This document shows, in pieces, positions 6,010 through 63,880 of a stretch of 64,000 nucleotides of DNA. Location: the IMG/VR virus record IMGVR_UViG_2690316311_000019; one strand, 5' to 3'. The translations under genes and the position numbers were made by a program. How positions within the stretch are numbered: position 1 is the first letter of the stretch; every line of letters begins with the position of its first letter. The notes under the pieces were generated by a model. It had not been told where the DNA came from. It saw only the letters and a list, made by a program, of their open reading frames with translations, and made no database searches. Source of the DNA: a virus (taxonomy: Duplodnaviria; Heunggongvirae; Uroviricota; Caudoviricetes).

Positions 6010-6036
6010 AAGCGTAAGCAAAATTGGCAGTAATCC

Positions 6037-6112: not shown

Positions 6113-6392
6113 TATTTGGTTGTAACACGGCGTCTGGCACATGCGTCGTTAGCGGTCTGGTGACGTTAAAGGGGTAACCTTTCCCCTAGCTCAGGCAACA
6201 AACCAGGTAGCCGGAATGTGCAAGCCCCGTTCATAGCGTCGGACTGCGGATTCACCATCCTGGCGATTCGGTGTGACAACCGGGAAGAGTCCGGCGCATT
6301 AATCCTGATTTTCTGGTGATGACTCATATCGTTAGGAGTGATTTGAGTATGCCGATTATATCTGACATTCAGCACGCCTGGGTGGAGTGCTA

Positions 6393-7757: not shown

Positions 7758-7780
7758 TGCAATGGAATGAGGAAAAGCCG

Positions 7781-8802: not shown

Positions 8803-11948
<3,146 letters not shown>

Positions 11949-13166: not shown

Positions 13167-13175
13167 TCATTTCCC

Positions 13176-23289: not shown

Positions 23290-24143
23290 TCACTATTACC
23301 AAAGAGCGACTGCTGACAATCAAGCAGTGGCGCGAAACATACGGACCTGATAGCAACGTTGTACTGCCAGCAGAAGAAGCGGAAGAACTGGCGCGTATCG
23401 TGCTGGCATCGCTGGAAGCAGAGCCTGTTCTGTATCAGTCCTGCACTCGCCCCACCTGGAATAGCGGTGTTCCGTGGACGGAATGGAAAGAACGTAGTCG
23501 TGAGTGCTACGAAGACGATTTGCGTTTTACAGACACGCCTGACCATGCCGGTTGGATATACAAATGTCGAAAACTATATACCACTCCGCCAGCGCCGATA
23601 GCGTTAGAGGCCATTGAAAACGCAATTGAATACATTCGTAGTATCGCTTTTCACATCGATGAAGACGATTACCACGGCAAACATATTGCGTATTTCATGC
23701 GACAAGCATTGGCCTGGCTGGAAGGGCATTCATGCAGCGACGACAGACTGGGTAAAGCCGACAATCAGCCAGCATCTGGCAACCAGGCTGCCGAATCCAA
23801 TCGCGGTAATGAGTGGACCGGCAATCCTGATATTGATAACGCCATCATCATGCTCGACCGCATAGATACGCTGGAAAATTGCGATGATGACCGTATTGAG
23901 GCTGTTAAGGCTGTTTTGCGTAGACTGGCAGGCAACTCTCCGGTAACTCCGGATGGTTGGATAAGCTGTAGTGAGCGAATGCCACCTCAAGATGATTGGA
24001 TTTTAATTTATTCAAAGCACGGCGAGTATATGGCAGGACAGGTACAAGGGGAATACGTGGAGTTGAGCGACGGCACTTTATCGTGGTTAGGGAACGCCTT
24101 GTTCTGGATGCCGCTACCAGAACCGCCGCAGGAGGCGAAATGA
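23286..24143 (+). CDS. Hypothetical protein
   Basis: 285-aa ORF coupled to neighbours. Confidence 0.55.
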   Translation: MITITKERLLTIKQWRETYGPDSNVVLPAEEAEELARIVLASLEAEPVLYQSCTRPTWNSGVPWTEWKERSRECYEDDLRFTDTPDHAGWIYKCRKLYTTPPAPIALEAIENAIEYIRSIAFHIDEDDYHGKHIAYFMRQALAWLEGHSCSDDRLGKADNQPASGNQAAESNRGNEWTGNPDIDNAIIMLDRIDTLENCDDDRIEAVKAVLRRLAGNSPVTPDGWISCSERMPPQDDWILIYSKHGEYMAGQVQGEYVELSDGTLSWLGNALFWMPLPEPPQEAK

Positions 24144-24400
24144 TGGATGTAAAAGAGAAGGTTTTGCAGGTGATGCGTTCCCGGGCTGCCCTGCAAGATA
24201 AAGCTCTCGGCGGGGAATATCCATTCAGGATGGCAACCTGGAATCTGCGGTTGGCAATGGAGAAGGAATTTCCTGATGAAGAATGGCGTTCGGCAGATTT
24301 GCGCAAAATTCTTATGGAGCTGGCTAAAGACGGAACAGTATCCAAAGATACCCATGCCAGCCGGATTGGTCAGGCGGTATGGAGACTGGAGGTGAGGTAA
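24141..24400 (+). CDS. Small hypothetical protein
   Basis: ATG at 24141 within track ORF. Confidence 0.45.
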
Positions 24401-24681
24401 TGGCTAACCTGCAACTTGCCGTTAAAGGTGAATACTTCGATGCCATGATTCGCGGGGAGAAAACGGAAGAGTATCGCCTGTGTAATGACTACTGGAATAA
24501 GCGCCTCGTTAACTGTAAGTATGACCGCCTGATTATCACAAAGGGATATCCGAAGCGCGAAGACTTCAGTCGCAGAATTGACGTCCCGTATAACGGATAT
24601 GAAATAAAAACAATCACACATCCACACTTCGGTGATAAACCGGTAAAGGTGTTCGCGATAAAAGTGAAGATTAATAGCTAA
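24400..24681 (+). CDS. Small ASCH-like protein
   Basis: RGEKTEEYR motif. Confidence 0.45.
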   Translation: MANLQLAVKGEYFDAMIRGEKTEEYRLCNDYWNKRLVNCKYDRLIITKGYPKREDFSRRIDVPYNGYEIKTITHPHFGDKPVKVFAIKVKINS

Positions 24682-24704
24682 ATTTCAATTAACACGGAGT
24701 AATT

Positions 24705-24998
24705 ATGTGGCGCGGTAATAATCATGGCGGAAGTCAGATGATACTTACCGAATATACGTTCGACCACAAAACCAATAAATCACGTTCAGTATATTTGCTT
24801 CGGCACAATAGCCGCGTAAGAAATACCGTTCTGGAGCAAAATCTGACCGTTGAAATGGATAATTTGGGAAACTTCAAGCCAACAATATCGCTTGATGATT
24901 TTCCGTGTGGTTTAAGCGAAAGAGAAGCAATGCTGAAATTAGCAGAATGGCTACAAAGATTAAGCATTGCTATTGAAGATAACTGGCCTGAACCTTAA
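24705..24998 (+). CDS. Hypothetical protein
   Basis: ORF. Confidence 0.45.
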   Translation: MWRGNNHGGSQMILTEYTFDHKTNKSRSVYLLRHNSRVRNTVLEQNLTVEMDNLGNFKPTISLDDFPCGLSEREAMLKLAEWLQRLSIAIEDNWPEP

Positions 24999-25004
24999 AT
25001 TAAT

Positions 25005-25379
25005 ATGATGACACTAAAACATTTTCTTGACCGCCCATTATGGGCGGCAGCCGCAGGCTATGACTTTAATTATATGGATTGCATGTCTTATACTGCCAAT
25101 GCATACGACCATTCGTTCAGCCTGCTGTTTAATTCTTTAAGAATATTGCCGGAAACAGAAGTTGGAGAGCTTCATTTATGGATATTGGGCTTTATCGCGG
25201 CTGGAGTTGGTATTGCCGTATGGCCTTTTATTTTCTGGCTGGTGGCTGTTGTAGTGTGGTTTAAGTGCAAGACGTACCGGAAAAAGTATTTCTTAGGTGA
25301 TGGAATGACTGATATTGCCAAAATGAACATTGAAAAATGGACTAAGGAATGTGAAAAGAAATGGCGCAAAAAGAAATGA
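25005..25379 (+). CDS. Hypothetical membrane protein
   Basis: Hydrophobic helices. Confidence 0.5.
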   Translation: MMTLKHFLDRPLWAAAAGYDFNYMDCMSYTANAYDHSFSLLFNSLRILPETEVGELHLWILGFIAAGVGIAVWPFIFWLVAVVVWFKCKTYRKKYFLGDGMTDIAKMNIEKWTKECEKKWRKKK

Positions 25380-26050
25380 CTACTCTAACGACAGCATACT
25401 TACAGCAATTGGTATTTTTTGCAGGCGAGGCTACTTGTCATCCTGACGCAAACTATTTATTGGAATTTGAGAGGTTAGCGTCACCCGGTATCGTTCTGGA
25501 ACTGGCCCAACAGGTGCTGGCCTTGAGACAAAAAGAGCAACATGAAAGTAATACGTGTAGATTGAATTTTGAGCAGTGGCTGGAACAGCAACGCGGAAAA
25601 ATCGATGTGGACTGTGGTTGTGTGTCCACTGAAACATTCATGCACTGGCTGCGGGTAGCTTACGAGGCTGGCAACTATCCGGATATTCCGGATATTCCGG
25701 ATAGTTCGGTGCCAGCGCCAGGAAAGGGCGTCACAGGTGAACGTATCCGCATTAAGCCGCATGTTTATCGCGAACTGGTTAACCGTCTCCACGATACAGC
25801 GATCAAGTGTGCAGGCACCCAGCAATTACGAGAAAGAATTAGCCGTGTTTTGGGCGACGTTATTACGCCAGACCATCATAAACAAGCCGAGAAAAGTGAC
25901 CTGGAAAGGTGTCACCTTGAGGCGGCATTAAACATTAAGCCGGGGCATACGCTTGGCATTATCGATGCTCTGTTGGTTCATAAGATGGCCAGGGCTTTAT
26001 TGCCGCTGGTGGCTGAAAAGCATGAGGCGGACCATGCCAACGAAAGCTGA
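25361..26050 (+). CDS. Hypothetical protein
   Basis: 229-aa ORF. Confidence 0.5.
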   Translation: MAQKEMTTLTTAYLQQLVFFAGEATCHPDANYLLEFERLASPGIVLELAQQVLALRQKEQHESNTCRLNFEQWLEQQRGKIDVDCGCVSTETFMHWLRVAYEAGNYPDIPDIPDSSVPAPGKGVTGERIRIKPHVYRELVNRLHDTAIKCAGTQQLRERISRVLGDVITPDHHKQAEKSDLERCHLEAALNIKPGHTLGIIDALLVHKMARALLPLVAEKHEADHANES

Positions 26051-26318
26051 GTTACAGGCGCGCATAGATATTCTTGAAAAAGAGAATGCGAGTCTAAAAG
26101 GAATGCTGGCGCGGGCGGAAAGGGAATTATCAGGCAAATTATTGCCAGAAGAGCTGCCACCAGCAGATATACCTGATCGAGTGTCCTGGTGGATGAAGTA
26201 TTTCCGTGCACCGTGGGAGGCGTTTTGGTGCTACGACCATCGCAGATGGTGTGATGAGCTTGATAGCAGTTTCCCCTATTTTGCGGAAGGGAACTCTTGC
26301 CCTGAATGTAGGAGTTAA
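26034..26318 (+). CDS. Small coiled-coil / Cys-His motif protein, paralog 1
   Basis: C-terminal WEAFWCYDHRRWCDELDSSFPYFAEGNSCPEC. Confidence 0.5.
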   Translation: MPTKAELQARIDILEKENASLKGMLARAERELSGKLLPEELPPADIPDRVSWWMKYFRAPWEAFWCYDHRRWCDELDSSFPYFAEGNSCPECRS

Positions 26319-26623
26319 TGATGACCGGAGAGCTTTATTTTAAAATGGCACGGGAGCGGCGTGTGCATCTGGATCGGATATTTCATCTCCAGAAGAGAGT
26401 AGAAGAACTGGAACGTCGTCTGAACTGTTATCCTGTTGATATGGTGTCTGCAATACCGCCGATTCCAATAGAAATGCAGATCCGCCTATGGATGGAAGAA
26501 TATGGAATGCCGTGGGAGATATTTTTCTGCTTCGACCATAAACAGTGGGTAGATGAGCTGGATAATAGTTTCCCATATTTCACAGAGAACACATGCCCAG
26601 TATGCAGGAAGAACGGAATATGA
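26318..26623 (+). CDS. Small coiled-coil / Cys-His motif protein, paralog 2
   Basis: C-terminal WEIFFCFDHKQWVDELDNSFPYFTENTCPVC. Confidence 0.5.
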   Translation: MMTGELYFKMARERRVHLDRIFHLQKRVEELERRLNCYPVDMVSAIPPIPIEMQIRLWMEEYGMPWEIFFCFDHKQWVDELDNSFPYFTENTCPVCRKNGI

Positions 26624-27144
26624 CAAAATTTGGAAAGCTGGAAGCTCATTTGCTAACTCGTAACTACCGCCATGATATACACCCATATAGACAGTGGATC
26701 GATGAAAGTGAAGGAGTAGTTACATTCCCTCTATACAGGTTTGATGGGATGTTGGCTGGGTATCAGACATATAGACCAGGTGCTCCTAAGCAGCATAGCA
26801 ATCCGAAGATGGCCCGGTATTTCACGCGATCACATGGCAGACAGTTACTTTGGGGAACCTATCTTCCTTTAAAAGATGGCCCAATATGGATAACTGAGTC
26901 TATTTTTAAGAGCGCAGCTGTACACAACGCGGGCGGCAATTCGTGGGCGCTGTTAGGTTCGACTTTCTCCGCAGGATTACGCCGTCAACTTGCGATGCTG
27001 CCGTATGACTTTCGTGTAATAGGTGACAATGATGCGGCTGGTGAATTACTTGTGAAGTCTTTCGGAAAAGGTTTTGTGGCCCCGGATCTTGACGAGCTAC
27101 AACCACATGAAGTGTCTCATTTGATTTTTAGCCATAGCCAATAA
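26620..27144 (+). CDS. Toprim-domain protein
   Basis: Conserved E (ITESIF) and DxD (GDNDAAG) motifs. Confidence 0.55.
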   Translation: MTKFGKLEAHLLTRNYRHDIHPYRQWIDESEGVVTFPLYRFDGMLAGYQTYRPGAPKQHSNPKMARYFTRSHGRQLLWGTYLPLKDGPIWITESIFKSAAVHNAGGNSWALLGSTFSAGLRRQLAMLPYDFRVIGDNDAAGELLVKSFGKGFVAPDLDELQPHEVSHLIFSHSQ

Positions 27145-27204
27145 GCATCTCTCCCCTTTGAGGCCACAATTAGTGGCCTTAAACAATGTGTTTTCTACCT
27201 CGAT

Positions 27205-27420
27205 TTAGCCTCTATTATCGTTTTGCATTTCTCTAATCCGGTTCAGAACTACTTCATGCTGGGCTTGGATAGCGGCTTTTTCGTTTTCAAGTCGGGCAAT
27301 AGACATCTCTAATTCTTTGCTGTACCAGGCGAGTTGGGCCAGGTTCATCCGGTTGTGGTCGAGAGTTGGAGACACTTCGACGCGATCCCTTTCTTCCTGC
27401 TTTAATGAGAAGAGATTCAT
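27205..27420 (-). CDS. Small hypothetical protein
   Basis: 71-aa ORF. Confidence 0.4.
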   Translation of the reverse strand: MNLFSLKQEERDRVEVSPTLDHNRMNLAQLAWYSKELEMSIARLENEKAAIQAQHEVVLNRIREMQNDNRG

Positions 27421-28644: not shown

Positions 28645-29024
28645 TGAGGCATATATCACCGGAAGAACTTATTGCGCTTCATGATGCGAATATAAGCCGC
28701 TACGGCGGCCTGCCGGGAATGTCAGATCCGGGTAGGGCAGAGGCCATTATCGGGAGAGTTCAGGCCAGAGTTGCCTACGAAGAGATCACCGACCTTTTCG
28801 AAGTCTCCGCCACCTACCTGGTGGCTACGGCGAGAGGGCATATATTCAATGATGCCAATAAGCGTACCGCGCTAAACAGTGCGCTGTTATTTCTACGCCG
28901 TAACGGGGTGCAGGTATTTGATTCACCTGAACTGGCAGACCTTACCGTAGGGGCTGCGACTGGCGAGATATCTGTATCTTCTGTCGCCGCCACGTTACGT
29001 AGATTGTATGGTTCTGCGGAGTAG
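28644..29024 (+). CDS. doc: Toxin Doc (Fic-fold kinase)
   Basis: 126 aa with [11 protein letters not shown] motif. Confidence 0.92.
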
Positions 29025-29208
29025 ATTAATGGCACGCAAATACAACAAATTGTCCCGTGAAGCGTTAAAGATGCTTCTTGATGGCGTGAGTCGCCGCGAG
29101 GTAAAGCAATACCTGGTTGGTAAGCAAATTAGAGCCAGGACTGCTATTGCTGTGTTATGCCGTCAGGAAATGGTTGTGCTTAAACAGAGAATGCCGGGCA
29201 GCAGATAA
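29008..29208 (+). CDS. pdcA: Small protein downstream of doc
   Basis: Position as in P1. Confidence 0.5.
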
Positions 29209-29235
29209 AGCCCAATCAGTGATGAAAGGTGTGAT

Positions 29236-30279
29236 GTGAAAGCCGTAATTACTCCCTTTGTACAAAAAGAGCTTGGCGTCGCCACATTCAAAGTGGATCA
29301 GGAAGTCAGAAAGCTGGTGGAGGCTGGCCGTAAATTTATTATGGAGCCGGTGCCGCGTGAGTTAATCGAGCACATGGACGACGGCCTCGTTGTTTCCGAG
29401 CAAACTATGGCAACAAATGAGGCGTTGCAGCCGTTTTTTAACAGCGATGAACTGTTTCGCCGTATTGGTGGAATTGACGCGCTGGTGGCGTGGTTGCGCA
29501 GGAAAGAGGGGCAATGCCAGGCCGCAGATCGTAGCTGGTGTGACAACCATATTGTCCACGCAGAACGAGACAATAGCGCGGTGTTGTTGTGCTGGCATCA
29601 CGATAACCATTACCGGATGCGTGGTTTTAATGAGCTGAAAGAAACGCTGCATAATAATCGCGTTAACTGGATACTGGATGTCGCCCGTCAGGAAATGGGG
29701 CTTTCAGATGGCCATGATTTAAGTATTCAGGAACTGTGCTGGTGGGCTTTCATGCGCAACATGATGCACCTGATGCCGGAAGAAGTTTGCCGCATATCAA
29801 TAAATAAGATGAAGGCTGCTCCGCAGGATAGCGGACCTTTGAAAGAGGCGGATATTCGCCCGTACGACGATCGTGCTACAGCATATGTTCAGATGATGGA
29901 AGAACGCGCCGCGCCGATGCGTGCAAAAGTATGCCCTGTGGATGTTGACTCCGACCCTGGCATGGCGCATTTCAAAATACCAAAACTGCAATCGCTAAAA
30001 TTACCCGAGTACATGGACTTTGTTGCTTCCCGTCCGTGCTGTGGATGTGGAGCTGCGGGAGCTGGCGCTCGCATTACGCCTTATATCGTTCGTCATAGTC
30101 GATTATGCGCGCATGACATTTACGCAATTCCTCTGTGCCAGTCATGCCAGCGTGATATTGAGCGTGACCGCGATAATTGGGAGAAGACGCACGGCAGGCT
30201 GGCGATGCATCAACGATTGTTCTTTGATTACGCGCTTGGAGTCGGCGCTATCACAAGTCACTCGTCGAGCGTTAGATAA
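29236..30279 (+). CDS. pdcB: Protein downstream of doc
   Basis: 347-aa ORF, P1 synteny. Confidence 0.65.
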
Positions 30280-33922: not shown

Positions 33923-34143
33923 TGGCTACTATCCCTACCCCAACTCATCCTGAATTTATCTGGCGCTTTTACTCCTGCCAAAAACGTCACTATCACTTCG
34001 TTATTGCACCAACAGAAGATGAGGCCCGCTCTCAGCTTCCTGACGCCCCATGTATTTTCTCTGCCCGTTTTTCCACTGATTCACGCAATTCTCTCAGTTA
34101 CTGGTGCCTCCCTGTTAACGCTTCTGCTCAGGAGGGACTATGA
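33923..34143 (+). CDS. Small hypothetical protein
   Basis: ATG with AGGAGG RBS inside a longer track ORF. Confidence 0.4.
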
Positions 34144-34913
34144 GAACGTCATTAGTCACCCGTGAAGAGATGATCGAGGCAATTGAACAGCACACTGCCT
34201 GTATCAGTACCAGGGATATACCAGGCGTTATTGCCAACTACTTCATGATCACCAAACAACTTTACCGGAGAAAGGACAAGAACGCGGTTCACCGTATCCT
34301 GTTGTCTGATATCCGCGAATACCTGCTCGAACAGGGTCATCTGAATTACGCAACCGTCGCAGCCGAAGCACGCAAGGAGGCACACAGAATGAAAGCAACT
34401 AACGTTAAATCAGAAAAAATTCATGCACCTTCAGTTCAGGAATCGGAGCTGGTGGTTGTTCAGAATCAGTCTGATGAAATTCCCGTTCTGGAATGGCAGG
34501 GAGTGCGTGTAGTGACAACCGAGACTCTTGCTAGAGGGTATGGGACAGAAACAATCCGTATTCGCCAAAATCATCATGAGAACAAAGTACGCTTTGTTGA
34601 AGGGAAGCACTTTTTCAAAGTTGAAGGAGAATCATTGCGCGAGTTGAAGCACAGAGTAGCTTTAAACTACTCTGTAAAAATTGCTCGCAATGTTCGCTCA
34701 CTCCCCTCTGGACAGAACGCGGCGCAGCCCGCCACGCTAAAATGCTCGAAACCGATCAGGCATGGGCATTCTTTGAAAAACTGGAAGACAGCTACTTCCG
34801 ACAAAAAGAACAGCAACCGATCGCAATCCCCCAGACGCTTCCTGAAGCCCTACGCCTGGCTGCCGAACTGGCTGAACAAAAGCAACTTCTGGAACAGAAA
34901 GCCCACCAGCTAA
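34140..34913 (+). CDS. Antirepressor-like protein, N-terminal part (ORF6N/AntA domain); frame-broken
   Basis: IPVLEWQGVRVVTTETLARGYG...FVEGKHFFKVEGESLRELK motif. Confidence 0.6.
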   Translation: MRTSLVTREEMIEAIEQHTACISTRDIPGVIANYFMITKQLYRRKDKNAVHRILLSDIREYLLEQGHLNYATVAAEARKEAHRMKATNVKSEKIHAPSVQESELVVVQNQSDEIPVLEWQGVRVVTTETLARGYGTETIRIRQNHHENKVRFVEGKHFFKVEGESLRELKHRVALNYSVKIARNVRSLPSGQNAAQPATLKCSKPIRHGHSLKNWKTATSDKKNSNRSQSPRRFLKPYAWLPNWLNKSNFWNRKPTS

Positions 34914-35257
34914 ATCAGCAGCTGGTGGCCGCCGCTCCTAAAGTCGATTTTGCCGACCGGGTATCAGTAGCTAAAGGGATCCTGATTGGGAATTTTGCAA
35001 AGGTTGTTGGACTTAAGCAAAACGCGCTGTTTGTCTGGTTACGGGAGAACGGCATCCTGATAGCGTCCGGTGGACGTAAAAATGTGCCGTTCCAGCAGTA
35101 CATCAACGCGGGGTATTTCACGGTGAAAGAAGTGGTGCTGGATGATGAAGATGGCTACCAGATACGGTTGACGCCTCAATTAACGGGTAAAGGCCAGCAG
35201 TGGTTGACGCGTAAACTGCTCGATGCTGGCTTGTTAAAACCGGTGGCAGCTGAATAA
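34742..35257 (+). CDS. Antirepressor-like protein, C-terminal part (KilAC/ORF6C-like); frame-broken
   Basis: LWTERGAARHAKMLETDQAW motif readable in this frame from 34700. Confidence 0.6.
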   Translation: MLETDQAWAFFEKLEDSYFRQKEQQPIAIPQTLPEALRLAAELAEQKQLLEQKAHQLNQQLVAAAPKVDFADRVSVAKGILIGNFAKVVGLKQNALFVWLRENGILIASGGRKNVPFQQYINAGYFTVKEVVLDDEDGYQIRLTPQLTGKGQQWLTRKLLDAGLLKPVAAE

Positions 35258-40350: not shown

Positions 40351-41301
40351 CTAATCAATAAATACACGGAATGTCTCCAGCATCCCTTCAGGATCTTTAT
40401 CCTCGTCACCTAATGATATTAGTCTTCTGGCAAGAAGTTTCACATCATCATCATCTTTGATGTAACCAACCTGATCATTTTCAAAATAAATATCAATTAT
40501 TTTTAGGATTTGCTCTTGTGTAAAGTGAGTGAGCTTTAATAATTTTGCTACAACTCGATGTGTTGTAGCAAAACTGCCAGAGTGTCGTAATTCATCTATA
40601 GTGAGATTAACTTCCATTTCCACCAAGTTACTAGCTTGAGGAAAGTGCTCGCCTATAAACTCTGATAAGCGGGAATAGATATGTGGTTCTGAATTTTTCT
40701 TTTTTTTCCACTCATGCTTCAAATATTCATTCATATCATCCTTTATAAAGGCACTTTTATAATCACCATCTTCAGTTATGATATATATATCCTCACCGTC
40801 TGGTATCGCTTTTAGCAAACATTCCCAATTAACTGCGTCACCATATGATTTATTTTTGCCTGGCGGGTTTCCAAGATCAAATCGAAGTTTCCCCTTATCT
40901 ATTGTTTCATCATCAGCCTCTATTTTAGATGCTGCATCAAAAATCCTTTTAATTACAATATCGGCAGCCAAAGCCTCCTCTTTAAACAATTTCTGGATAT
41001 CTGTAATAATTTCATTCTTTAACCTACCTGCTTCTATAACCTTATCATTAAATTGTGAATGCTTTTCATGTTGCCTAAAAATCTGGGGAAGCGCGGGCTT
41101 ATAATCTTTTGTTATTTCCTTTATGGTTTCAGAGAGAACTTTAGAACGATTTCTCCAGAACTCATTCACTAAAAGCTCTGGTAACCAAAGTTTTAAACGA
41201 CCATATTGATGTAAGGCAAATACTTTATCCAGCTCATCTAGTTTATCTCTACCCATCCTGTAAAATTCTAAATATAGATTTGTATCAATAAAAACATTCA
41301 T
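40351..41301 (-). CDS. PIN-like nuclease domain protein (316 aa) in the locus that holds res/mod in P1; candidate defence/exclusion gene
   Basis: N-terminus MNVFIDTN with downstream acidic residues (E43, D147, D170); markedly AT-rich gene. Confidence 0.7.
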   Translation of the reverse strand: MNVFIDTNLYLEFYRMGRDKLDELDKVFALHQYGRLKLWLPELLVNEFWRNRSKVLSETIKEITKDYKPALPQIFRQHEKHSQFNDKVIEAGRLKNEIITDIQKLFKEEALAADIVIKRIFDAASKIEADDETIDKGKLRFDLGNPPGKNKSYGDAVNWECLLKAIPDGEDIYIITEDGDYKSAFIKDDMNEYLKHEWKKKKNSEPHIYSRLSEFIGEHFPQASNLVEMEVNLTIDELRHSGSFATTHRVVAKLLKLTHFTQEQILKIIDIYFENDQVGYIKDDDDVKLLARRLISLGDEDKDPEGMLETFRVFID

Positions 41302-42081: not shown

Positions 42082-45000
42082 TTATGCGTATTGTTGGATG
42101 ACGGCCAGAACGTCCGCCACGTTGTGTTTTGTCTCGATAATCCACCAGTTACCCGGGAAATCGCTGTTCTTCGCCTTCGCTGGCAGCCAGCGAGCGCCGA
42201 ATTTTTCCTTGATTGCGTCTTTAGCACGGAAAAGAACGCCTTTCATGCCGGACGCCTCCTGAAGCCCAAATACCTCTCCAGCGGCGAATTTTGGTGCGTA
42301 CATCATCTTCAGGTCGGCAGTGGATACGCGATAATTCAGACCAAGAGACTGAGCTATGCTGGTGGCATCACCCTGTATTGATGATAACTCTTCTTGTTTC
42401 TCGTTTCTGGCGGCAATTTCTTCCTCCGTGATGTTGCCAAGGGCCAGGTTTATCCGATCAGCGTCGGCCTGTTTCTCTTCATCGGTGCGCCCGGCAAGAA
42501 CCGTGTTAATTCTCTGCAATATCTCCACATGATTCTTGCGCATGCTGAGCAAGTCCGGCGTAACCTCGTTAAGATCCACCAGCCCAAGGATGGCAAGGTC
42601 GGAAAACATTGATACCAGGTTGTAGGTCATGCGATAGCTGAGTTGACCATAGGCTGATGGCAACTTCATCGCATCCATTTTATAGGCATCCATAAATTTA
42701 GAGCCGTCGTTTACGACATCCGCAATTGCCGGTGTGATTTTTCCTGTGGTGGCGGCCTCCCTGATTGCTGTTACCCACGATTGAGTCAGCGCGGCGACTG
42801 CATGATTCAGATTGGCTTTCCGTTCTGCTGCAATGCGCGCGCTTGCTGCGTCCATTGCCTGCTTGATCTCGTCTTTATTGCTGTAAATGCCAATGGTGCC
42901 AAACTGTGCTGTGGTGATCTCATAATCTGACGCCCGGAACTCATTGGTACCGAAAATAGCATTGGTGACCTCAAGTTCAGAATCCCCGTTACGAGTAGCC
43001 CCCTGGTTTGTTTTTTCCGGCATTCTGGCGATCGCATCCGCTATTTTCTCCTGAATTGCTTCAGGGGATAGCGTATCTCCGTATGACGCGATTACATCGC
43101 CATAATTGGAGCCAAACAGTTCAACCAGGAATGTTTCTGCCGAACGGATCTGGCGGTTATTCCCTTCCGACATCATACCAAGCACCCATTTTGCAATTGA
43201 CGACTTCAGCGCGCCGTCACGGCGATCCGGGTAAACCGCATGCTTCAGTGGGTACGTATAGGTACCAACAAAATCAATGCTATAGCCTGACTCTGTAGTC
43301 TGAACGCCGTATGAGTCAGTGATTTTGATCATGCCGCGCTGCTGGAAACGGTAGAAATCGTCACAGGAAATGATGTCGTTAATCCCGGCGATGGAGACGC
43401 CACCACTGATTTTCTGCATAACAGCATCTTCATCGGGAGTTACATCAACCTGTTTATCCAGCGTCTTCACATCCCAGTTACCCGATTTGGTACCTTTGAA
43501 GGTAAAGATGATCTCCACGTCTGCGCGCTGGCTGTCGAAGTCCAGCGACTTAATGCGAACGATATCACCGGCACAATCATAGTATTGGCCTACACGCCAT
43601 GAGCGATCGCCGATAACAAGGAACTCATTCGCATGGTTAACCAGATCAGGATCAACATCCAGAATGCCTTTATTTATTGCATCCTCCACCAGCGGGCGCA
43701 GGCGTTTGATATCCGTCGCGGCCTTCTGAGTACGGTTCAATAATTTCTCATAGCGGGAGATGGCCTGAGAGATATTAGCCTTGCGCTGAATGGCGCTTTT
43801 CAACGACGCGCGATACTGTGCTAACAACATACGGTCTGTGTGATGGACGCTACCCCAGCGGGCTTTCCAGTCTGCGTTATCAGCTGCTTTGGCCATTACC
43901 GCCTGTTTGAATTTGGCGACGTCGGCGGTGGTCTTTTCAAGTTCCGCTTTGCTTCGCTCCAATTCAGCGGTAAGTACCTCCACATCCTCACCAGCTGCGT
44001 GCTGCGCCTTGATGTAGTTCTGAAGGTCGATAGTAGCCTGTTCTTTCTGGCGAGCGCGTTTCGCAGCTTTCGCCTTATCCATTTGAACCTGCATCATTGC
44101 CAGACGTTCGCCGTCATCCTTCGCGGTATACATCTGCATTTCGATCATGTCATTGGCGTCGGCGTTCTCCATTTCTGACTTATCTGAACGGAGGATATCG
44201 GAGATCCAGCCTGCTTTACGCTTCAGCGTCTTCAGTCGGTATTCATCGAAAGACCCCTTGCCGCAGTAGTAGTGAACGCGAACGCTTGCACGGTTGGAGC
44301 CAACTCGTGCACCGCGACCGTTACGTTGTGCGATGCTGGCTGGAGTCCACGGCAACGTCAGGTGGTGGATATCCGTCGTTCCTCGATGCAGGTTGATACC
44401 CACCTCTGCCTTTTTGTTGCAGATGATGATCGGAGTCCGGCCCTCCTGGAAGTCGGCTGCAATCTTTTCCAGACCGCCCAACGACATTTCATTTTGCTGC
44501 GCGATATAGGCGTCATACCGAGCCATTTGCTCGTTGTATTTCGCTATCTGCGCATCTGTTGGTTCATCCGGTAGCTCTTTCGGCGGTTTAACAGCTTTCA
44601 GTTTCTGACCGGTTTTACCTGCCTCGGCAACCGTCTGAGCATTCAGGATCCCCACCTTTGAAGGTTCAAGGTTAAGAGCATTGCAGATAATGCGCTTGAG
44701 CTTCTGGTGCTGCGTTTTTTCATCGGTGAAGATGATTTGCTTACCTTCCGGGAAAAACTCCTTCAGCGTGGCAATCAGCTTCGCGTATTTGGGCGTAACG
44801 GGGTGAGTTACGGTCTGTTCGTCAATGCCAAACCTGGCCAGGCGCTTATTCACTTCCTGCTCGAACGCTTCCGGAACCTGCAACTGAATAAACTCGCCCT
44901 TATCTATCAGGGAGTATTGCGATTGCTGCGTGATTGAATCATCACTGTCGTCGTCTTCGCTGGTGGCTTGTTTAGGCAAACTGTCCGCCAGCTGCTGCAC

Positions 45001-47994
45001 CGCATCGGCATACTCCGGCAGGAAACGATAGGTGATCCGGCGATAGTACAGGTCCATGTCAGTACATACGCGGTCCATATCCCTGATTATTGAGAAGATC
45101 GGACGGGCTTTCTCGTGCTCAATCACGCCGTCTTCATTGACCGAGGTCGTTACGCCATTGTTGGCTTTGGCTGCCGCTTCCGCCTGCTGACGCAATTCTT
45201 CATACGCCGCCAGTTGTTCTTCAGTAAGTGGTGCATCCTGCTGGTGTTCGTCCAGTTCCGGGATCTCCACGGTATCCTTAACGTCTTCCGCCGTTTTAAG
45301 CGTTGTCCAGCGATGGAATATGCCGCGCAGCGCATCAAGGTTTTCAAAACCCACCAGCGCCATTTTTTCTTCAACTTCGCCGCTGATTTTCTGTACCGTT
45401 TCCAGCCTGGTCTTGCCGAAGAATTTAACGAAGTCATCAGGACCGTAGATCCCCATCTTCTGCCAGTATTCCTTCGGCAGCACATGAGAAAGCATGTTGT
45501 ATGCATCGATCGGGGTGTTAACTACTGGCGTTGCAGTCAGGAGAACCGGTCCGCGCCCACCATTCTTTTTCATCAGGTACGCGTTTTTGATTGCCATATC
45601 CCGCGCCGATTGCGCCACCGCGCTGGTGGGCAGATAGGCCAGTTGTGACGCTTCGCGACCATTTTTATAGCTATTGCGGTAGTTGTGGCCTTCGTCAGCA
45701 ATCACGCTGTCGAAGCCCATATCCTCAAAGTACGGATACTTCTCTGCTTTTTCGGTACCGGTATCTGAATACTCCGACAATACCCGGCGACGCGCCGCCT
45801 CTTTGCGATGGGAATCGGAGTCCATTGCGCTGGCCACACGCCCGGCAGCAACGAAGTCATAAAGCATGTCTTGTGCATGCTCATCTACGGTGTCATCACG
45901 TAGCGGAATGCGGGCGTATTGTTCTTTGGTAAACACGACTGCACGGTAATTTGAGTGCGGGATCGCGTTCATCCGCGCCGTGATAGTGGCTTCATCTGCC
46001 AGCTTAAGAGCATCGCGCATAACTGGAGTGCCATCAGTACCAAGAACAGGTTTACCGTTCTCATCGAGCACCGGCACCTGGCGAATCTGATCGCCATCCA
46101 TCAGCACATCAAGACCGACGAACAGGTAGTTACTGAATGCCTCTTCACTCAGGAACTCTTTTGCTTCGTAATACCAGTTTTCCAGCACTGCTTTAGGCAC
46201 TACATAAGCAGTACGGGTGGAGCGACCGTTCTCATAGTTGAACGCCTCAAGCGCCAGCGCGGTCGTCGTTTTACCCAGCCCGGTGCCGAAGCCCAGGATG
46301 CCGCGCCCATCTTCGGACAGTCGGCGCACCTCGCTATTCTGGTAATCAAATGGCTGGCGCTTACCGCTTAATCCCTTCAACCCAAGCGGATCGCCAGAGT
46401 GTTCATACGGGATATTGCTATTGAACACATCGTTGTATTTGGCAACCAGCTCATCGTAGCGATCGTGCGTCTTGAGCCACTTATTGAACTGGTCCTCAAG
46501 CAGTGCCATCTGCTCGCGGTAGCCGTTCGCCGTCGCGCTATCTTTGCCACCGATACGCGCACCATTGAGATACTTTTCCAGCTGTGCCGGGAACCCGGTC
46601 GCGTTTTCACCTGATTTACGGTCCCACTCGTAGCGGATCTCGCCTGTTTCTTTATCCTTGCGCTGGACGACACCGTATCGGTGTCCGACGAACAGACCAT
46701 CACCACCGTGATAGGTGTCAGAAACCATTTCGTCGCCTTCCAGCTGCACTGACTGCACATAGCGCAGATCCGGATAGCCGTTTTCCTGCAAAAATTCCAG
46801 AATGACGGAACGGTCGAACCAACGGCTATTGAGCTTAAAGCGGATATTCTCTGCTGGCGTCTTGATGCGCTTCTCTTCGATCGCTGCCAGCTGATTAAGG
46901 ACGTTGTTCTTTACTGGACCGTCGGGGAGCGTGGCGAGGAATTCCTGTTTTGGAGCCACTATCTCGTTAATGTCGCCGCTGGTGGCGCGGGCGAACGGAA
47001 CAATCCCGCCATACGGTGAAACCGCAATACCAGGGGTGCTGGCCAATAAATTAAGCAACTCTTTATCACTGGCTGGCAGTTCGCCGGTAAACGCAAGGCG
47101 GAAATCATCGAGCTGGATTGGATCGCGGGTAAGATCGCTATAGAGATAACGCAGGATGTCCTGATAGCTGGTGGAGTCATAACTGGCGCTGGAATCATGC
47201 GTAACCAGCTTTCCTGTCAGCTCGTCAGAAATAGTGCCATCCAGCTTAATCGCACCACGGAAAGCAAACCAGGCGCGCGCACCGCTCCCCGACAATTTCG
47301 CTATAGGACCGCGACCAGGATTACCAAAGCGGTCAATCTCTGCCTGCAAACGGGATACCAGAGAAAGGCGCTGCTGTTCGATTTGTTCAGCACTATGCCC
47401 GGCGGCCTTCATATCCTGATATTCAATTAACATCCGGCCAATCATCGCCCCGCGATACAAGCGTTCACGGTATTTTTCAGGCTGGCTGTTAATCCAGTCC
47501 ACCAGCTGCACCATATCGTCGCTGATTGATGTGGTGTACTTATCGCGGACATTTGCCATCTGGGTAAATGTCATGCCGAGACGACCTTCTGTGGTAGTCA
47601 GGTTACGCTGAAGAGCCTCCCAGCTATCCGCGCCATAACTGGCAACATCAATCTTCAGCTCCTTCCCGGCATCAGCTTCAATCCAGCGACCACCAGCATA
47701 TTTTTGCCATACGCCATTAATCAGGCGCATTTCCCCTTCATCAACAACATCTGCGGTCGGTGACGGTTCAGCCATATCGAGCAAAGACCAGTCGATACGA
47801 CTTTCGAAACGATGAATCAGCTTCGCTTTAAGAGCCAGGTTATCAATCTGCCCGTCGGCACGAACCTCAATACGCCCCTGGAAACCCTTCTCCTGGGTGC
47901 CATGAACAAACCGGCGGCCGTCCTTTTCGAACCACTTGCCAGAAATAAACGTTGGCCAAAGCACATTTGCCGATTCAAGAGTGCCTTCATCCAC
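42082..47994 (-). CDS. darB: DarB antirestriction protein, C-terminal 1970 aa (SF2 helicase region); frame-broken from N-terminal part
   Basis: Helicase motifs GFGTGLGKTTTA, DEGHNYRN, GRGARVGS; 8-nt overlap with upstream ORF. Confidence 0.85.
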   Translation of the reverse strand: MDEGTLESANVLWPTFISGKWFEKDGRRFVHGTQEKGFQGRIEVRADGQIDNLALKAKLIHRFESRIDWSLLDMAEPSPTADVVDEGEMRLINGVWQKYAGGRWIEADAGKELKIDVASYGADSWEALQRNLTTTEGRLGMTFTQMANVRDKYTTSISDDMVQLVDWINSQPEKYRERLYRGAMIGRMLIEYQDMKAAGHSAEQIEQQRLSLVSRLQAEIDRFGNPGRGPIAKLSGSGARAWFAFRGAIKLDGTISDELTGKLVTHDSSASYDSTSYQDILRYLYSDLTRDPIQLDDFRLAFTGELPASDKELLNLLASTPGIAVSPYGGIVPFARATSGDINEIVAPKQEFLATLPDGPVKNNVLNQLAAIEEKRIKTPAENIRFKLNSRWFDRSVILEFLQENGYPDLRYVQSVQLEGDEMVSDTYHGGDGLFVGHRYGVVQRKDKETGEIRYEWDRKSGENATGFPAQLEKYLNGARIGGKDSATANGYREQMALLEDQFNKWLKTHDRYDELVAKYNDVFNSNIPYEHSGDPLGLKGLSGKRQPFDYQNSEVRRLSEDGRGILGFGTGLGKTTTALALEAFNYENGRSTRTAYVVPKAVLENWYYEAKEFLSEEAFSNYLFVGLDVLMDGDQIRQVPVLDENGKPVLGTDGTPVMRDALKLADEATITARMNAIPHSNYRAVVFTKEQYARIPLRDDTVDEHAQDMLYDFVAAGRVASAMDSDSHRKEAARRRVLSEYSDTGTEKAEKYPYFEDMGFDSVIADEGHNYRNSYKNGREASQLAYLPTSAVAQSARDMAIKNAYLMKKNGGRGPVLLTATPVVNTPIDAYNMLSHVLPKEYWQKMGIYGPDDFVKFFGKTRLETVQKISGEVEEKMALVGFENLDALRGIFHRWTTLKTAEDVKDTVEIPELDEHQQDAPLTEEQLAAYEELRQQAEAAAKANNGVTTSVNEDGVIEHEKARPIFSIIRDMDRVCTDMDLYYRRITYRFLPEYADAVQQLADSLPKQATSEDDDSDDSITQQSQYSLIDKGEFIQLQVPEAFEQEVNKRLARFGIDEQTVTHPVTPKYAKLIATLKEFFPEGKQIIFTDEKTQHQKLKRIICNALNLEPSKVGILNAQTVAEAGKTGQKLKAVKPPKELPDEPTDAQIAKYNEQMARYDAYIAQQNEMSLGGLEKIAADFQEGRTPIIICNKKAEVGINLHRGTTDIHHLTLPWTPASIAQRNGRGARVGSNRASVRVHYYCGKGSFDEYRLKTLKRKAGWISDILRSDKSEMENADANDMIEMQMYTAKDDGERLAMMQVQMDKAKAAKRARQKEQATIDLQNYIKAQHAAGEDVEVLTAELERSKAELEKTTADVAKFKQAVMAKAADNADWKARWGSVHHTDRMLLAQYRASLKSAIQRKANISQAISRYEKLLNRTQKAATDIKRLRPLVEDAINKGILDVDPDLVNHANEFLVIGDRSWRVGQYYDCAGDIVRIKSLDFDSQRADVEIIFTFKGTKSGNWDVKTLDKQVDVTPDEDAVMQKISGGVSIAGINDIISCDDFYRFQQRGMIKITDSYGVQTTESGYSIDFVGTYTYPLKHAVYPDRRDGALKSSIAKWVLGMMSEGNNRQIRSAETFLVELFGSNYGDVIASYGDTLSPEAIQEKIADAIARMPEKTNQGATRNGDSELEVTNAIFGTNEFRASDYEITTAQFGTIGIYSNKDEIKQAMDAASARIAAERKANLNHAVAALTQSWVTAIREAATTGKITPAIADVVNDGSKFMDAYKMDAMKLPSAYGQLSYRMTYNLVSMFSDLAILGLVDLNEVTPDLLSMRKNHVEILQRINTVLAGRTDEEKQADADRINLALGNITEEEIAARNEKQEELSSIQGDATSIAQSLGLNYRVSTADLKMMYAPKFAAGEVFGLQEASGMKGVLFRAKDAIKEKFGARWLPAKAKNSDFPGNWWIIETKHNVADVLAVIQQYA

Positions 47995-48850
47995 CAGGGG
48001 GGATTTTCTCAGCCATCTCTGCCGGATGTTTACGCATCAGCACCACATCAACGACCGTACTGGTCCCGTTTGCGTCAAAAGTACCGGTAGGCAAGCGGTG
48101 AGCGCCAAGAAATTCAGCTTTACGGGATAGGCGCAGGCGTAACCGCTTCATGTTTGAACCTGAAACAATGGACGGCGGCACAATCACACACATGAATCCG
48201 CCAGGCTTTATCTTGTCCAGCATGCGGAGCATGAAGTAAGAACCCATGTCCGTTTCTTCTGCGTAAGGCTTATCGATGTTGCGTGTGTTATCACGACCGC
48301 CGAACGGAACGTTACCCACAACATGGTCGAATGAATCGTTAGGCGTGCTTATAGCCAGCTGTTCGAACGGGGAAATCTGTACGCTGTCTTCCGGGTGTAA
48401 CAACTGGTTTATACGACCGGAAACACTGCTGATCTCAGTCGCGGTCATCACCGTACCAACCGGTTTTGTCTCATTAAAAACGCCGGTTCCCGCCGATGGT
48501 TCCAGAGTGTTACCTACGTCCGCGCCGTAGAGCTTCATGATCTCCCAGACGCCTTCAGCGATCGGCTTTGGTGTGTAATATTCGGAGACGGCCCCGCCAA
48601 TGCCACCTTCACCGGTGTACCCAGCCAGGATCTGGCGCTGTTCATCTGTCAGTGTCGCGCCGTCCACCAGCGAATTAAGCAAATCTATCGCCTTCTGATT
48701 CGCCTCCCGGCGCAGTCGGTCATAGCTTTTGCCTTCCACCTTTTCCACGCCGTATTTAATCGGCGCCCGGTGAGATGTTATTGCCCTAATGTATTTCAAT
48801 ATTTCGCTGACACTTGAACAGCGAAACACCCCCATAGATAGCTTGTTCAT
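47987..48850 (-). CDS. darB: DarB N-terminal 287 aa (N6-adenine methyltransferase-like region)
   Basis: MTase-like NVPFGG motif; ends at stop inside a C6 tract. Confidence 0.8.
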   Translation of the reverse strand: MNKLSMGVFRCSSVSEILKYIRAITSHRAPIKYGVEKVEGKSYDRLRREANQKAIDLLNSLVDGATLTDEQRQILAGYTGEGGIGGAVSEYYTPKPIAEGVWEIMKLYGADVGNTLEPSAGTGVFNETKPVGTVMTATEISSVSGRINQLLHPEDSVQISPFEQLAISTPNDSFDHVVGNVPFGGRDNTRNIDKPYAEETDMGSYFMLRMLDKIKPGGFMCVIVPPSIVSGSNMKRLRLRLSRKAEFLGAHRLPTGTFDANGTSTVVDVVLMRKHPAEMAEKIPPGG

Positions 48851-48916: not shown

Positions 48917-51647
<2,731 letters not shown>

Positions 51648-53154: not shown

Positions 53155-53351
53155 ATGTGTAAAAAACGACTGAAAGAAAAGCGGTGGTCCAGACGCCGAC
53201 AAAAGCACGAACTCGCAAACAAACGCCAAAGTTGGCAATGGCACGCGCTTTTCACGAAAAGAACACCCCGAGATATTGCGTTCGCTGGTGGGAAAACATT
53301 CCTGACCCACCTGAAGGCGCAATACATCAGGTTTTAAGCAGAGGAAAGACT

Positions 53352-54029
53352 ATGAATAACATGACAACGAAAGAGCTTTTGACGGCACTTCCAAAATACA
53401 AAAGCCATAAAACAGTTCGCGCCTCAAAAATCAAAGATATCGAAATTATCGCCCTAATGGATGTGGTCCTTTTTTGCAACATCGAAGTCGTTGAGCCAGA
53501 AGGGGTAAAAGTCCATGTTGATAAAATATTTTTGCAAAAACACCGACCAGAAATTGGCGGATATCTGGTCGCTTATGAGGACGGATCTCTGTCCTATTCG
53601 CCAGAAAAAACATTTGAAGAAGGCTTTAGTCGGACTAACGACTTCTTCGAAAATGGGGTATCGCTCAGCATTGAAGGTCACAATGGGGTGACATTCATTA
53701 CAGCCAGGGACGTAACTATTTCTGCTGGCGGTATCGCTACTCTACAAGAAGAAATCGACCTTGAAGCAGCCGACTTTTCTGACGCGCTGATGTGGCTGAA
53801 GGATGGCAAGAAAGTTGCCCGACGCGGGTGGAACGGCGAAAACCAATTCTGCTGGCTGGTTCCTGAAGGACAGTACCCGGCACGAATGGAAGCCATTAAG
53901 GGATATTTCCCCGGCGACCTCGTTCCGTATGGTGCTTATTTCGCCTTAAAAAATGCACAAGGTGTAGTTGTTCCGTGGGTTCCTTCTGTAGGCGACTTAC
54001 TGGCATGTGACTGGTTTGTAGTGGAGTGA
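53352..54029 (+). CDS. Hypothetical protein
   Basis: ATG with GAGGAAAG RBS. Confidence 0.55.
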   Translation: MNNMTTKELLTALPKYKSHKTVRASKIKDIEIIALMDVVLFCNIEVVEPEGVKVHVDKIFLQKHRPEIGGYLVAYEDGSLSYSPEKTFEEGFSRTNDFFENGVSLSIEGHNGVTFITARDVTISAGGIATLQEEIDLEAADFSDALMWLKDGKKVARRGWNGENQFCWLVPEGQYPARMEAIKGYFPGDLVPYGAYFALKNAQGVVVPWVPSVGDLLACDWFVVE

Positions 54030-54035
54030 TTTAAC

Positions 54036-61148: not shown

Positions 61149-61760
61149 TTAATTTCCTGCTTTCAGTTGCTTAAGACGGCGTTTGAGTTCGCCATTTCGG
61201 GCCTTTTCGTTATTGAGTCGGCCTGTCTCCTTATCCAGCTTCGCCCGCAAATCAGTGATCTGCTGTTGATTGAAAGACACCGAGTTCTGCGCTGATTTAT
61301 AAGCGGCAACCACCTGAGCATTCCGCTGTTTTGCCTCTTGCAGGCGCTGAAAGTTGGATTTTACTGCCGGTTTCTTGTCTACCGGATTGGCAACACGTTT
61401 CGCTTTGGCGATCAGTGATTTCTGGAATTTTGCGGAGTTTTTGCGGGCCGCTTGCCCCATGACGGTACCAAGCGTCTTGATATCCGGCGACTGAGCGTTA
61501 GGAATAGCTTTTCCATTCAGCCTCACAGACGATATATCGCCAGTATCGTTTACCTGTATGGCAAGAATTTGTCCGTCGTTAAGAACCAGCTTTGCGGTTT
61601 TAACTTTAACGCCATCTTTCGTTGTTGCGCGGTTGCTGGAGTCAACCTCAATTACCGTAACACCGGTTTTATTGATCGCCGCGATAAGGGATTTCAGCCC
61701 CTTTTCATTAACCTGGTCAAAATCGACCGTTGCATACTTATTTTTCGTCATCTGACACAT
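61149..61760 (-). CDS. hdf: Hdf
   Basis: 203-aa ORF upstream of darA. Confidence 0.65.
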   Translation of the reverse strand: MCQMTKNKYATVDFDQVNEKGLKSLIAAINKTGVTVIEVDSSNRATTKDGVKVKTAKLVLNDGQILAIQVNDTGDISSVRLNGKAIPNAQSPDIKTLGTVMGQAARKNSAKFQKSLIAKAKRVANPVDKKPAVKSNFQRLQEAKQRNAQVVAAYKSAQNSVSFNQQQITDLRAKLDKETGRLNNEKARNGELKRRLKQLKAGN

Positions 61761-62507: not shown

Positions 62508-63331
62508 AAGTTCCCTCCTACGTTGTCAGGAGGTAATGGTATGCAAAGTAACTTCTCAACCGGTCATGCAAAGACAACAAGCGGAAAAAGAAAAGCAAAG
62601 CCTGCTACAGCTCGTCAGGGATAAAACTCAGCTCTGGGACTCACAGTTACGGCTAGGCATTATTTCCGTTCAGGGTAAACAAAAATTAACCGAGTGGATT
62701 CTCTATGCGCAGAAAGTCGAATCCACGGATACCTCCATCCTTCCAGTAACGTTTCCCGAAAAGCCGGAATGAGGAAAGGCCCGGAATCGGGCCTTAATTA
62801 ATATCTATAAGCTCAACAAATAAGAGCTAACAATTTTGTTAATTTCCTCTGGAAATAATGCATTGTGCTTATATATACCTGAAGCTATATTAAAGAGCGT
62901 CATGTAAAAAATAAACCAATCAATTAAATCTATTTTCAACAAACAAGTCAAAATTTTTAACAGATATGTATAGAAATGGCAAGCCATAAATTAATAATGA
63001 CATCCTTAATAAGTCTAAAGAAACACTAAATAGATAAAATATAAATTATTACATCCAAAAATATAGAAAGTGTTGGCAATCTTGCAACTCATTATCAATA
63101 CAATATTGACATCCCTTTAGCGCTCAGTTTAAAATTAACATTTGTGTTTACATTGTGCGTTGATTTAGTTTAGCAGGAACGCAGTAACACACTGATGATT
63201 ATTGTTTTAATTATAATGTCAATATATAAACATAGAAACCAAAAAATATAGGCAGTTGCAATATGTTATGTTACTTAATAGCTATTCACTTTGTCATCTT
63301 CGGGAATTCAAAAGCTCTATTGAGCTACTGG

Positions 63332-63835
63332 ATGGCTGAAATCATCAGGCGTGAAAAAATGGATGTTTGGCGACTATTAAGAGAGAAGAAGCAGCGCAAT
63401 CGGAATTTCCTTTTCTGGTGGAGACTGGCTAATGAAATGTATATTAATGGCAATAAATTACATAAGAAAGCAGCCAGAAAGTTAAACAATAATATAATTA
63501 ACAGATTTGGTTGCGAAATTGGATTGGGCGCAAATATTGGAAAAGGTTTAACAATTCCCCATCATACTGGAATTGTTGTTCATTTTGCTGTTGATGCTGG
63601 TGAAAATCTGGTTTTGCGACAGAATACTACCATTGGACAGGTAGATGGTGACATGCCTGGTTCAAGAGTAAAAATTGGTAATAACGTTGATATCGGAGCT
63701 AATTGTTGCATCATTGGATTATCACGTAAAATTGGGGATAATGTAAAAATAGGTGCAATGTCTTTTATAAATAAAGATATACCATCGAACTGCACATATA
63801 TAACAAAAAAGAGCGGTGTTGTATTGTATAAATAG
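63332..63835 (+). CDS. Hexapeptide-repeat acyltransferase (CysE/LacA-like left-handed beta-helix); start uncertain (track 63263)
   Basis: Repeated [LIV]G-x-x-x-x motifs (IGNNVDIGANCCIIG, IGDNVKIGAMSFI); AT-rich. Confidence 0.7.
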   Translation: MAEIIRREKMDVWRLLREKKQRNRNFLFWWRLANEMYINGNKLHKKAARKLNNNIINRFGCEIGLGANIGKGLTIPHHTGIVVHFAVDAGENLVLRQNTTIGQVDGDMPGSRVKIGNNVDIGANCCIIGLSRKIGDNVKIGAMSFINKDIPSNCTYITKKSGVVLYK

Positions 63836-63843
63836 AGTACATG

Positions 63844-63880
63844 AAGCCATCAATATTTCTATCGATGGCTTTATCCTTTT
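63844..63880 (+). terminator. Rho-independent terminator after acyltransferase gene
   Basis: aagccatc...gatggctt hairpin followed by T-rich run. Confidence 0.65.

Follow-up and report, generated by a model that had tools for sequence, protein, structure and literature searches.

The closest described counterpart of the locus analysed here is DarB of the phages P1 and P7 (UniProt DARB_BPP1, 2255 aa), in which an N6-adenine methylase is followed by an SNF2/ResIII helicase and a Helicase_C domain, and whose gene, in P1, lies between prt and ulx and is divergent from the portal gene prt. The signal that targets DarB to the capsid is formed by its N-terminal 30 residues (PMC9024508), and P1 with a deletion of darB is sensitive to EcoB/EcoK (PMC11109961). 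In a 64,000-nt stretch of Caudoviricetes DNA (IMG/VR record IMGVR_UViG_2690316311_000019; hereafter the window), we find a locus with the same domain order and the same gene neighbourhood as in P1. Unlike in P1 and P7, where the homopolymer tract is C5 and darB a single ORF, darB is interrupted here by one additional C at codons 283-285, and the locus is composed of the following features:

42082..48850, minus strand: darB pseudogene, the former whole frame (6769 nt versus 6768 nt in P1)
47987..48850, minus strand: 5′ ORF of 287 aa by translation, with an ATG start and a TGA stop at 47987-47989
47997..48002, minus strand: C6 homopolymer (G6 on the plus strand) at gene positions 849-854, where the 1-nt insertion lies; C5 in intact alleles
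42082..47994, minus strand: 3′ ORF of 1970 codons from an in-frame GTG, the remainder of DarB (SNF2/ResIII helicase, Helicase_C and a long C-terminal region)
48926..50635, plus strand: prt portal gene, divergent from darB, in the same synteny as in P1
41608..42048, minus strand: ulx, intact, 146 aa, whose product helps DarB reach the capsid (PMC9024508)

The coding strand across the break reads gagaaaatCCCCCCtggtggatgaagg. An initial annotation of the window had described two leftward ORFs, of 287 aa and 1970 codons, that overlap by 8 nt, and both are present on the minus strand with an overlap at 47987-47994; it had also placed a run of six C at this overlap, and while the run itself is there, it lies 2 nt upstream of the overlap and outside it, a trivial correction. 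The 287-aa ORF comprises DarB residues 1-283 followed by an out-of-frame P-G-G and the stop, so that it ends in …AEKIPPGG-stop. With Pfam matches above the curated cut-offs, it carries N6_Mtase (residues 90-282) and Eco57I (residues 160-244), within which a motif I-like EPSAGTGVF and a motif IV-like NVPF of the methylase core can be read by eye, and SNF2-rel_dom, ResIII and Helicase_C fall in the 1970-codon ORF. The proposal that deletion of one C would fuse the two into a 2255-aa protein, methylase first and helicase second, agrees with the Pfam matches and with the repaired frame, since removal of the extra column relative to P1 leaves a continuous 2255-codon frame that has 0 internal stops; the P1 protein, with which the size had been equated, indeed has 2255 aa. 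No Shine-Dalgarno sequence precedes the junction GTG of the 1970-codon ORF, the earliest ATGs that have one in the 3′ part of darB being at gene positions 1121 and 1277, and gene callers place the start of the 3′ ORF at 1277, which gives an 1830-aa product. We also considered the ATG within the junction GGATGA as a start; read from the sequence, it belongs to neither frame and is irrelevant.

The comparison with P1 darB that the initial annotation had suggested identifies the split gene as its orthologue. Identity to P1 is 97.9% at the nucleotide level over a 7,001-nt query spanning the gene, with 146 substitutions (about 2%) and 1 indel across the 6768-nt darB; the first 30 residues are identical and the first nucleotide difference, at nt 84, is synonymous. 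When the 6.77 kb are aligned with six intact alleles, those of P1 and P7 among them, no indel appears other than this single C, and the two ORFs are not adjacent by chance. Judged by its sequence, darB is here a frameshift pseudogene and a predicted non-functional member of the DarB family, with its frame broken at codon 284.

The other genes named for this system are in a different state. Four of them, listed below, have the lengths of their P1 counterparts and 0 internal stops:

61149-61760, minus strand: hdf, full length, 200/203 protein identity to P1
59228-61147, minus strand: darA, full length, 628/639 protein identity to P1
58866-59231, minus strand: ddrA, full length, 116/121 protein identity to P1
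55866-58853, minus strand: ddrB, full length, 983/995 protein identity to P1

Across 5,426 complete E. coli genomes, the tract is C5 in 428, as it is in P1 and P7, C6 in 8 and C4 in 3. The eight complete C6 plasmids come from O157, O111, O103 and other E. coli from the USA and Japan (one is given without a country), and all eight are annotated as 'frameshifted'; C6 was further found in one IMG/VR contig and in 10/10 sampled draft assemblies, and a product identical to the truncated 287-aa protein is encoded on no fewer than 1,000 contigs and matched in 1,927 index blocks. The split is shared within one lineage only, about 98% of the homologues being a single 2255-aa ORF. In-frame CCCCT alleles, in which the run is shortened to C4, make up 2/71 of the scanned loci, and plasmid H8 is probably also of this kind, as suggested by a failed tract match together with a SNP at gene position 854.

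All C6 copies share one 5′ haplotype, with 0-1 SNP among them over the 5′ 3.29 kb of darB, and only the 8 C6 records among the 5,426 complete genomes carry a 5′ haplotype that is at least 99% identical, the next best reaching 98.5%. The C6 haplotype is set apart from C5 alleles by 21 fixed differences, 17 synonymous and 4 non-synonymous, and this synonymous excess implies that the allele evolved as a functional gene and that the frameshift came late. Differences among the C6 copies are mostly clustered recombination imports, with mosaic blocks that begin as early as gene position 1000. Only two isolated SNPs arose within the lineage, S87A and Q478P, and both are non-synonymous, an anecdotal sample (n=2) whose comparison with the 17:4 background gives p=0.06 in a Fisher test and rests on too few SNPs. 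Of the 18 C6 copies sampled, made up of the eight complete plasmids and the ten drafts, 15 are free of any further stop or indel in the downstream 5.9 kb, and an identical 2000-bp out-of-frame deletion is found in 2012C-4227 and two draft assemblies. That the downstream frame is open in most C6 copies could reflect residual selection; it may equally be explained by a young mutation combined with repeated recombination import from intact alleles.

The insertion is therefore real, arose once and has spread, and some of its descendants have decayed further. As a whole, we think it highly likely that the locus is best explained by a genuine 1-bp insertion at codons 283-285 that is inherited and lengthens C5 to C6. 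It originated once on a distinct darB allele, was then carried along by one lineage of P1-like phage-plasmids, mainly in Shiga-toxin-producing and cattle-associated E. coli, and would entail loss of DarB function. The true inactivating mutation, one of three options named in the initial annotation, is accordingly the one that the data support.

As to the products, translation from the darB start is predicted to halt after 287 residues. The resulting fragment retains both the signal for the capsid and the methylase core; its synthesis, and perhaps its packaging, could continue. The approximately 1970 codons for the helicase and the C-terminal region are out of frame and lack a ribosome-binding site at the junction; even if translated, the helicase part would be without the targeting signal. 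Virions would then contain no full-length, 250-kDa DarB, and the protection that DarB gives against restriction of the EcoK/EcoB type is predicted to disappear. From the sequence, we infer a probable loss of DarB function, except for what rare +1 slippage at CCC-C might supply, and the fate of both fragments is to be read in the same way.

Such slippage is the basis of the alternative that fares best, in which the gene is leaky or split and still functional: +1 slippage would give a low dose of full-length DarB, or a separate function would reside in the 287-aa fragment, either by itself or together with a helicase part translated by re-initiation. A +1 slip on CCC-CCU-G would, as we read the sequence, restore the exact wild-type junction …K-I-P-L-V…, and P-P-G, as read in the new frame, is an EF-P-dependent pause motif. 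In E. coli, the sequence CC[C/U]-[C/U] is particularly prone to +1 slippage, which reaches about 1% when it stands at codon 2 (PMC4519876), and the C6 allele is very common, with a downstream frame that is usually still open. We nevertheless regard this alternative as improbable, because the C6 configuration is derived and limited to one young lineage rather than conserved, because the slippage reported for the position that shifts most readily is itself about 1%, and because descendants tolerate the 2-kb loss of the downstream part; that both S87A and Q478P are non-synonymous is, with n=2, only an anecdotal addition. The slippery CCC-C is present, but the stop follows three codons past the run, and no SD-like stimulator was found in the 20 nt upstream. 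Nor does the locus resemble a programmed, prfB-like +1 frameshift, given 428 genomes in frame (C5) versus 8 with C6. The specific form in which the C6 allele would be alive in a successful lineage as a hypomorph or split gene, with a packaged fragment and P-P-G-aided slippage of tRNA-Pro that yields low-dose wild-type DarB, we hold to be decidedly unlikely, and only if the leaky-expression reading were true would the locus imply new biology.

A phase-variable contingency locus, in which slippage in the C-run would switch DarB between off and on states, could be suspected from the three tract lengths in the databases (C4, C5 and C6) and from the fact that the tract is part of the coding sequence of a gene involved in conflict. 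The wild-type run, however, is only 5 nt long, when contingency tracts usually have 7 nt or more, and the C4 cases come mostly from error-rich assemblies. The in-frame CCCCT alleles shorten the run, which would not be expected if selection favoured a long tract. C6 arose once and sits on a single haplotype, on which no C5, and hence no revertant, occurs among the 5,426 complete genomes. The slippage-prone tract that the initial annotation had listed as another option is, as a switch, thus very hard to credit.

Short C-runs are typical indel sites in long-read assemblies, and where the tract of darB is C4, it does resemble such an error: the three C4 plasmids that we fetched and aligned have three different haplotypes, darB carries 62 indels in plasmid ECO12 and 2 in UID2309220007, and it is divided into several CDS in the phages 673R5 and 813R1. 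In vB_EcoM-673R5, vB_EcoM-813R1 and the ECO12 plasmid, which we take as artefacts, a one-base change in the length of the same tract likewise splits darB; unlike the C6 of the window, which is clean, reproducible and linked to a haplotype, these records are C4, and most have further indels or extra CDS fragments. That the true tract is C5, darB intact and C6 a sequencing or assembly error, the remaining option of the initial annotation, is extremely improbable. C6 recurs in many independent assemblies (8 complete plasmids, one IMG/VR contig and 10/10 drafts), where the 6.77 kb are free of other indels, and a minimum of 1,000 contigs encode the identical truncated protein; its linkage to the haplotype is perfect, which is not expected of random error.

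The finding is an ordinary one, since RefSeq already flags identical copies as frameshifted. Two of its pseudogenes, E3159_RS27735 (pF1273-3, E. coli O157:H7) and E4U64_RS27220 (pTX376-2), are 100% identical over the 7,001-nt darB query and are annotated by PGAP as 'N-6 DNA methylase, frameshifted'. Literature searches on the C6 darB allele and on how its carrier strains had been sequenced returned only a plasmid-typing mention, of the p0111 replicon in F1273 and TX 376-2 (PMC10731853). The practical value of the locus is limited: annotation should keep it as a true pseudogene, without "repair", and C6 is a handy clonal marker for one P1-like (p0111-type) phage-plasmid lineage in STEC. It is also a further example of the decay of phage-lifestyle genes in phage-plasmids that are inherited chiefly as plasmids.

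An IS3 insertion in bplA was considered as a reason for tolerance of the frameshift and rejected; of the C6 plasmids compared, only the one from O157 carries the IS3, at a site that the window does not cover. Because the O111 and O103 C6 plasmids keep an intact bplA, the frameshift preceded this insertion, and C6-lineage lysogens with intact bplA (the two checked, O111 and O103) would be natural darB-null relatives of P1 for studies of the Dar system.

Beyond darB, the window and pF1273-3 are not the same plasmid: pF1273-3 is collinear with the window in the blocks 1-8748, 8814-21523 and 27252-64000, at 99.0-99.6% identity, and has no long match to window positions 21524-27251. The best match to the backbone of the window is plasmid NZ_CP074968.1, at 99.7%.

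The split locus is darB of a P1-like phage-plasmid, as the initial annotation had it. A 7,001-nt query spanning the gene is 97.9% identical to P1 at the nucleotide level, with 146 substitutions and a single indel separating the gene itself from P1 darB; its flanks, the portal gene and ulx, follow the P1 arrangement; and the Pfam domains of its two reading frames, N6_Mtase and Eco57I-methylase in the 5′ and SNF2-rel_dom, ResIII and Helicase_C in the 3′ one, make up the set found in P1 DarB. The frames meet at a run of six C on the coding strand (C6; C5, the run of intact alleles, and C4 are named likewise):

47987-48850, minus strand: 5′ ORF, 287 aa
42082-47994, minus strand: 3′ ORF, 1970 codons
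47997-48002, minus strand: C6 run, just 5′ of the ORF overlap

The overlap amounts to 8 nt, and at the junction the coding strand reads …GAG AAA ATC CCC CCT GGT GGA TGA…, with the 3′ ORF in the +1 frame relative to the 5′ ORF (CTG GTG GAT GAA …). The proposal that loss of one C would fuse the two holds, as the deletion yields a single 2255-codon darB frame without stops. What results is an ordinary pseudogene by frameshift, which RefSeq already marks as such; the only non-trivial additions here are its single origin and its very wide spread in public E. coli assemblies.

P1 and P7 have C5, and two long-read phage records have C4. Tract length was scored in 5,426 complete E. coli genomes by megablast with queries of 46-48 nt, whose 21-nt flanks on each side permit a 28-nt seed only where query and subject tracts are of equal length; recovery of the window-identical records by the C6 query served as positive control.

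Tract length in darB among 5,426 complete E. coli genomes (megablast survey)
C6: 8 genomes
C5: 428 genomes
C4: 3 genomes

The total of 439 is consistent with the 448 genomes in which the 5′ part of darB is mostly present, and the remainder probably include alleles such as CCCCT, a synonymous in-frame change that shortens the run and was seen in a variable-gap pattern scan of IMG/VR and GTDB species genomes (71 loci: 68 C5, 2 CCCCT and 1 C6).

Among the explanations first offered for the tract, a true inactivating mutation is the one supported, with C6 present on one haplotype in 8 complete plasmids and in 10 of 10 sampled draft assemblies. The complete plasmids, from O157:H7 (2), O111:H8 (3), O103:H2 from Japan, 2012C-4227 and 94_0962, all carry a frameshift annotation (8/8) and are identical over the first 3.29 kb of darB but for one SNP, at position 259 of the gene, whereas six C5 alleles differ from them by dozens of substitutions over this segment. 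Only these eight records match the C6 5′ segment at ≥99% identity among complete genomes (next best 98.5%), and the IMG/VR C6 contig falls on the same haplotype (1 mismatch in 1962 nt). We conclude that C6 is a genuine mutation, which arose once and has since become widespread. A slippage-prone tract, understood as recurrent switching, finds no support in this single haplotype. Homopolymer sequencing error can be set aside, as C6 is reproduced across assemblies and the exact 287-aa product occurs on at least 1,000 contigs (1,927 index blocks); no further darB indels were found in the eight complete plasmids except a 2,000-bp deletion in 2012C-4227, nor in the drafts except a 2-kb deletion in 2 of the 10. 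The pattern expected of long-read error is shown by the three C4 plasmids, which represent three unrelated haplotypes and carry 62 darB indels in one case and 2 in another.

Across the darB query, the window is 100% identical to pF1273-3 and pTX376-2, two E. coli O157:H7 plasmids in which PGAP labels the gene "N-6 DNA methylase, frameshifted". It is neither of them: outside darB it is 99.0-99.6% identical to pF1273-3 (blocks 1-8748, 8814-21523 and 27252-64000), with non-collinear segments and no long match to that plasmid over 21524-27251, and its backbone is closest among complete genomes to plasmid NZ_CP074968.1 (99.7%), which is not a C6 record. The window is therefore a related mosaic plasmid, the disparity between darB and the backbone pointing to recombination around this gene among P1-like plasmids.

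Fixed differences separate the C6 haplotype from all six C5 alleles at 21 sites, of which 17 are synonymous and 4 non-synonymous, an excess which argues that the allele evolved under purifying selection and that the frameshift came late on the branch. Isolated SNPs arisen within the C6 lineage are S87A and Q478P, both non-synonymous (n=2, too few to test). Downstream differences among C6 copies form clustered blocks matching other darB alleles, which indicates recombination there. Outside the deletion carriers, no stops were found in the repaired frame of any sampled C6 copy, which fits a young lesion and import of intact downstream segments. Some C6 descendants have decayed further: the deletion, out of frame, is identical in 2012C-4227 and two draft assemblies (gene positions 4721-6720).

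P1 DarB, a 250-kDa protein, is loaded last of the Dar components at ~40 copies per virion, and its N-terminal 30 residues suffice for capsid targeting (PMC9024508); deletion of darB renders P1 sensitive to EcoB and EcoK (PMC11109961). The 287-aa product has the same N-terminus as that of P1 and retains the Pfam-detectable methylase core, the rest of DarB being gone. No Shine-Dalgarno sequence precedes the junction GTG of the downstream frame, and the first ATGs so preceded lie 260-420 nt further on, so that a product started there would be without the targeting signal; full-length DarB is therefore not expected in virions. DarB is the only arm of the Dar system affected in the window, with hdf, darA, ddrA, ddrB and ulx intact and 96-99% identical to P1. 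In the Japanese O103:H2 plasmid NZ_AP038984.1, an InsQ/TnpB-type element (33999-35207) lies right after ddrA, the usual start of ddrB, and may disrupt a second Dar component.

tRNA-Pro is known to slip +1 on the motif CC[C/U]-[C/U], at rates of up to ~1% at codon 2 against a background of <0.003% (PMC4519876). A +1 slip on the C6 run would give back the exact K-I-P-L-V, so full-length DarB may be made in trace amounts. The tract bears no marks of a programmed frameshift site: its configuration is derived rather than conserved, an SD-like stimulator is absent, and the stop codon lies three codons past the run. After the tract, CTGGTGG (47990-47997, minus strand) makes the junction CCTGGTGG, identical to Chi (GCTGGTGG) at 7 of 8 positions, where P1 has CCTGGTGC; darB is reportedly rich in Chi sites (PMC11109961), and the near-match is probably of no consequence.

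Other loci are split as well:

34140-35257, plus strand: overlapping ORFs in different frames, 34140-34913 (257 aa) and 34742-35257 (171 aa)
19586-20306, plus strand: overlapping ORFs, 19586-19891 (101 aa) and 19842-20306 (154 aa)
pF1273-3 record 11470-14216: IS3-family insertion in the baseplate wedge gene bplA, O157 plasmids only

The first corresponds to a [quoted passage not shown] in the PGAP annotation of pF1273-3, and the second to a hypothetical gene likewise "frameshifted" there (record 63155-63875). These, at least two in the window besides darB, are consistent with an element that is inherited as a plasmid and gradually loses its phage functions. The bplA split lies outside the window, and the O157 plasmids that have it probably cannot form infectious particles; as bplA is intact in the O111 and O103 C6 plasmids, the darB frameshift preceded the IS3 insertion.

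Two other loci were also observed. Next to ssb, a DUF2829 gene (~53350-54030, minus strand), placed by collinearity with pF1273-3 record 28852-29529, has a product that matches Pfam PF11195 (Tad2-like) in related contigs and may be an anti-Thoeris-type counter-defence gene. At 40351-41301 (minus strand), 3′ of ulx and an 82-aa ORF, the window has a PIN_12/PIN_8-domain gene where sister C6 plasmids have a SIR2_2 gene, an AraC-type HTH gene or a DUF2971 gene, a pattern suggestive of a hot spot where accessory or defence cargo is exchanged.
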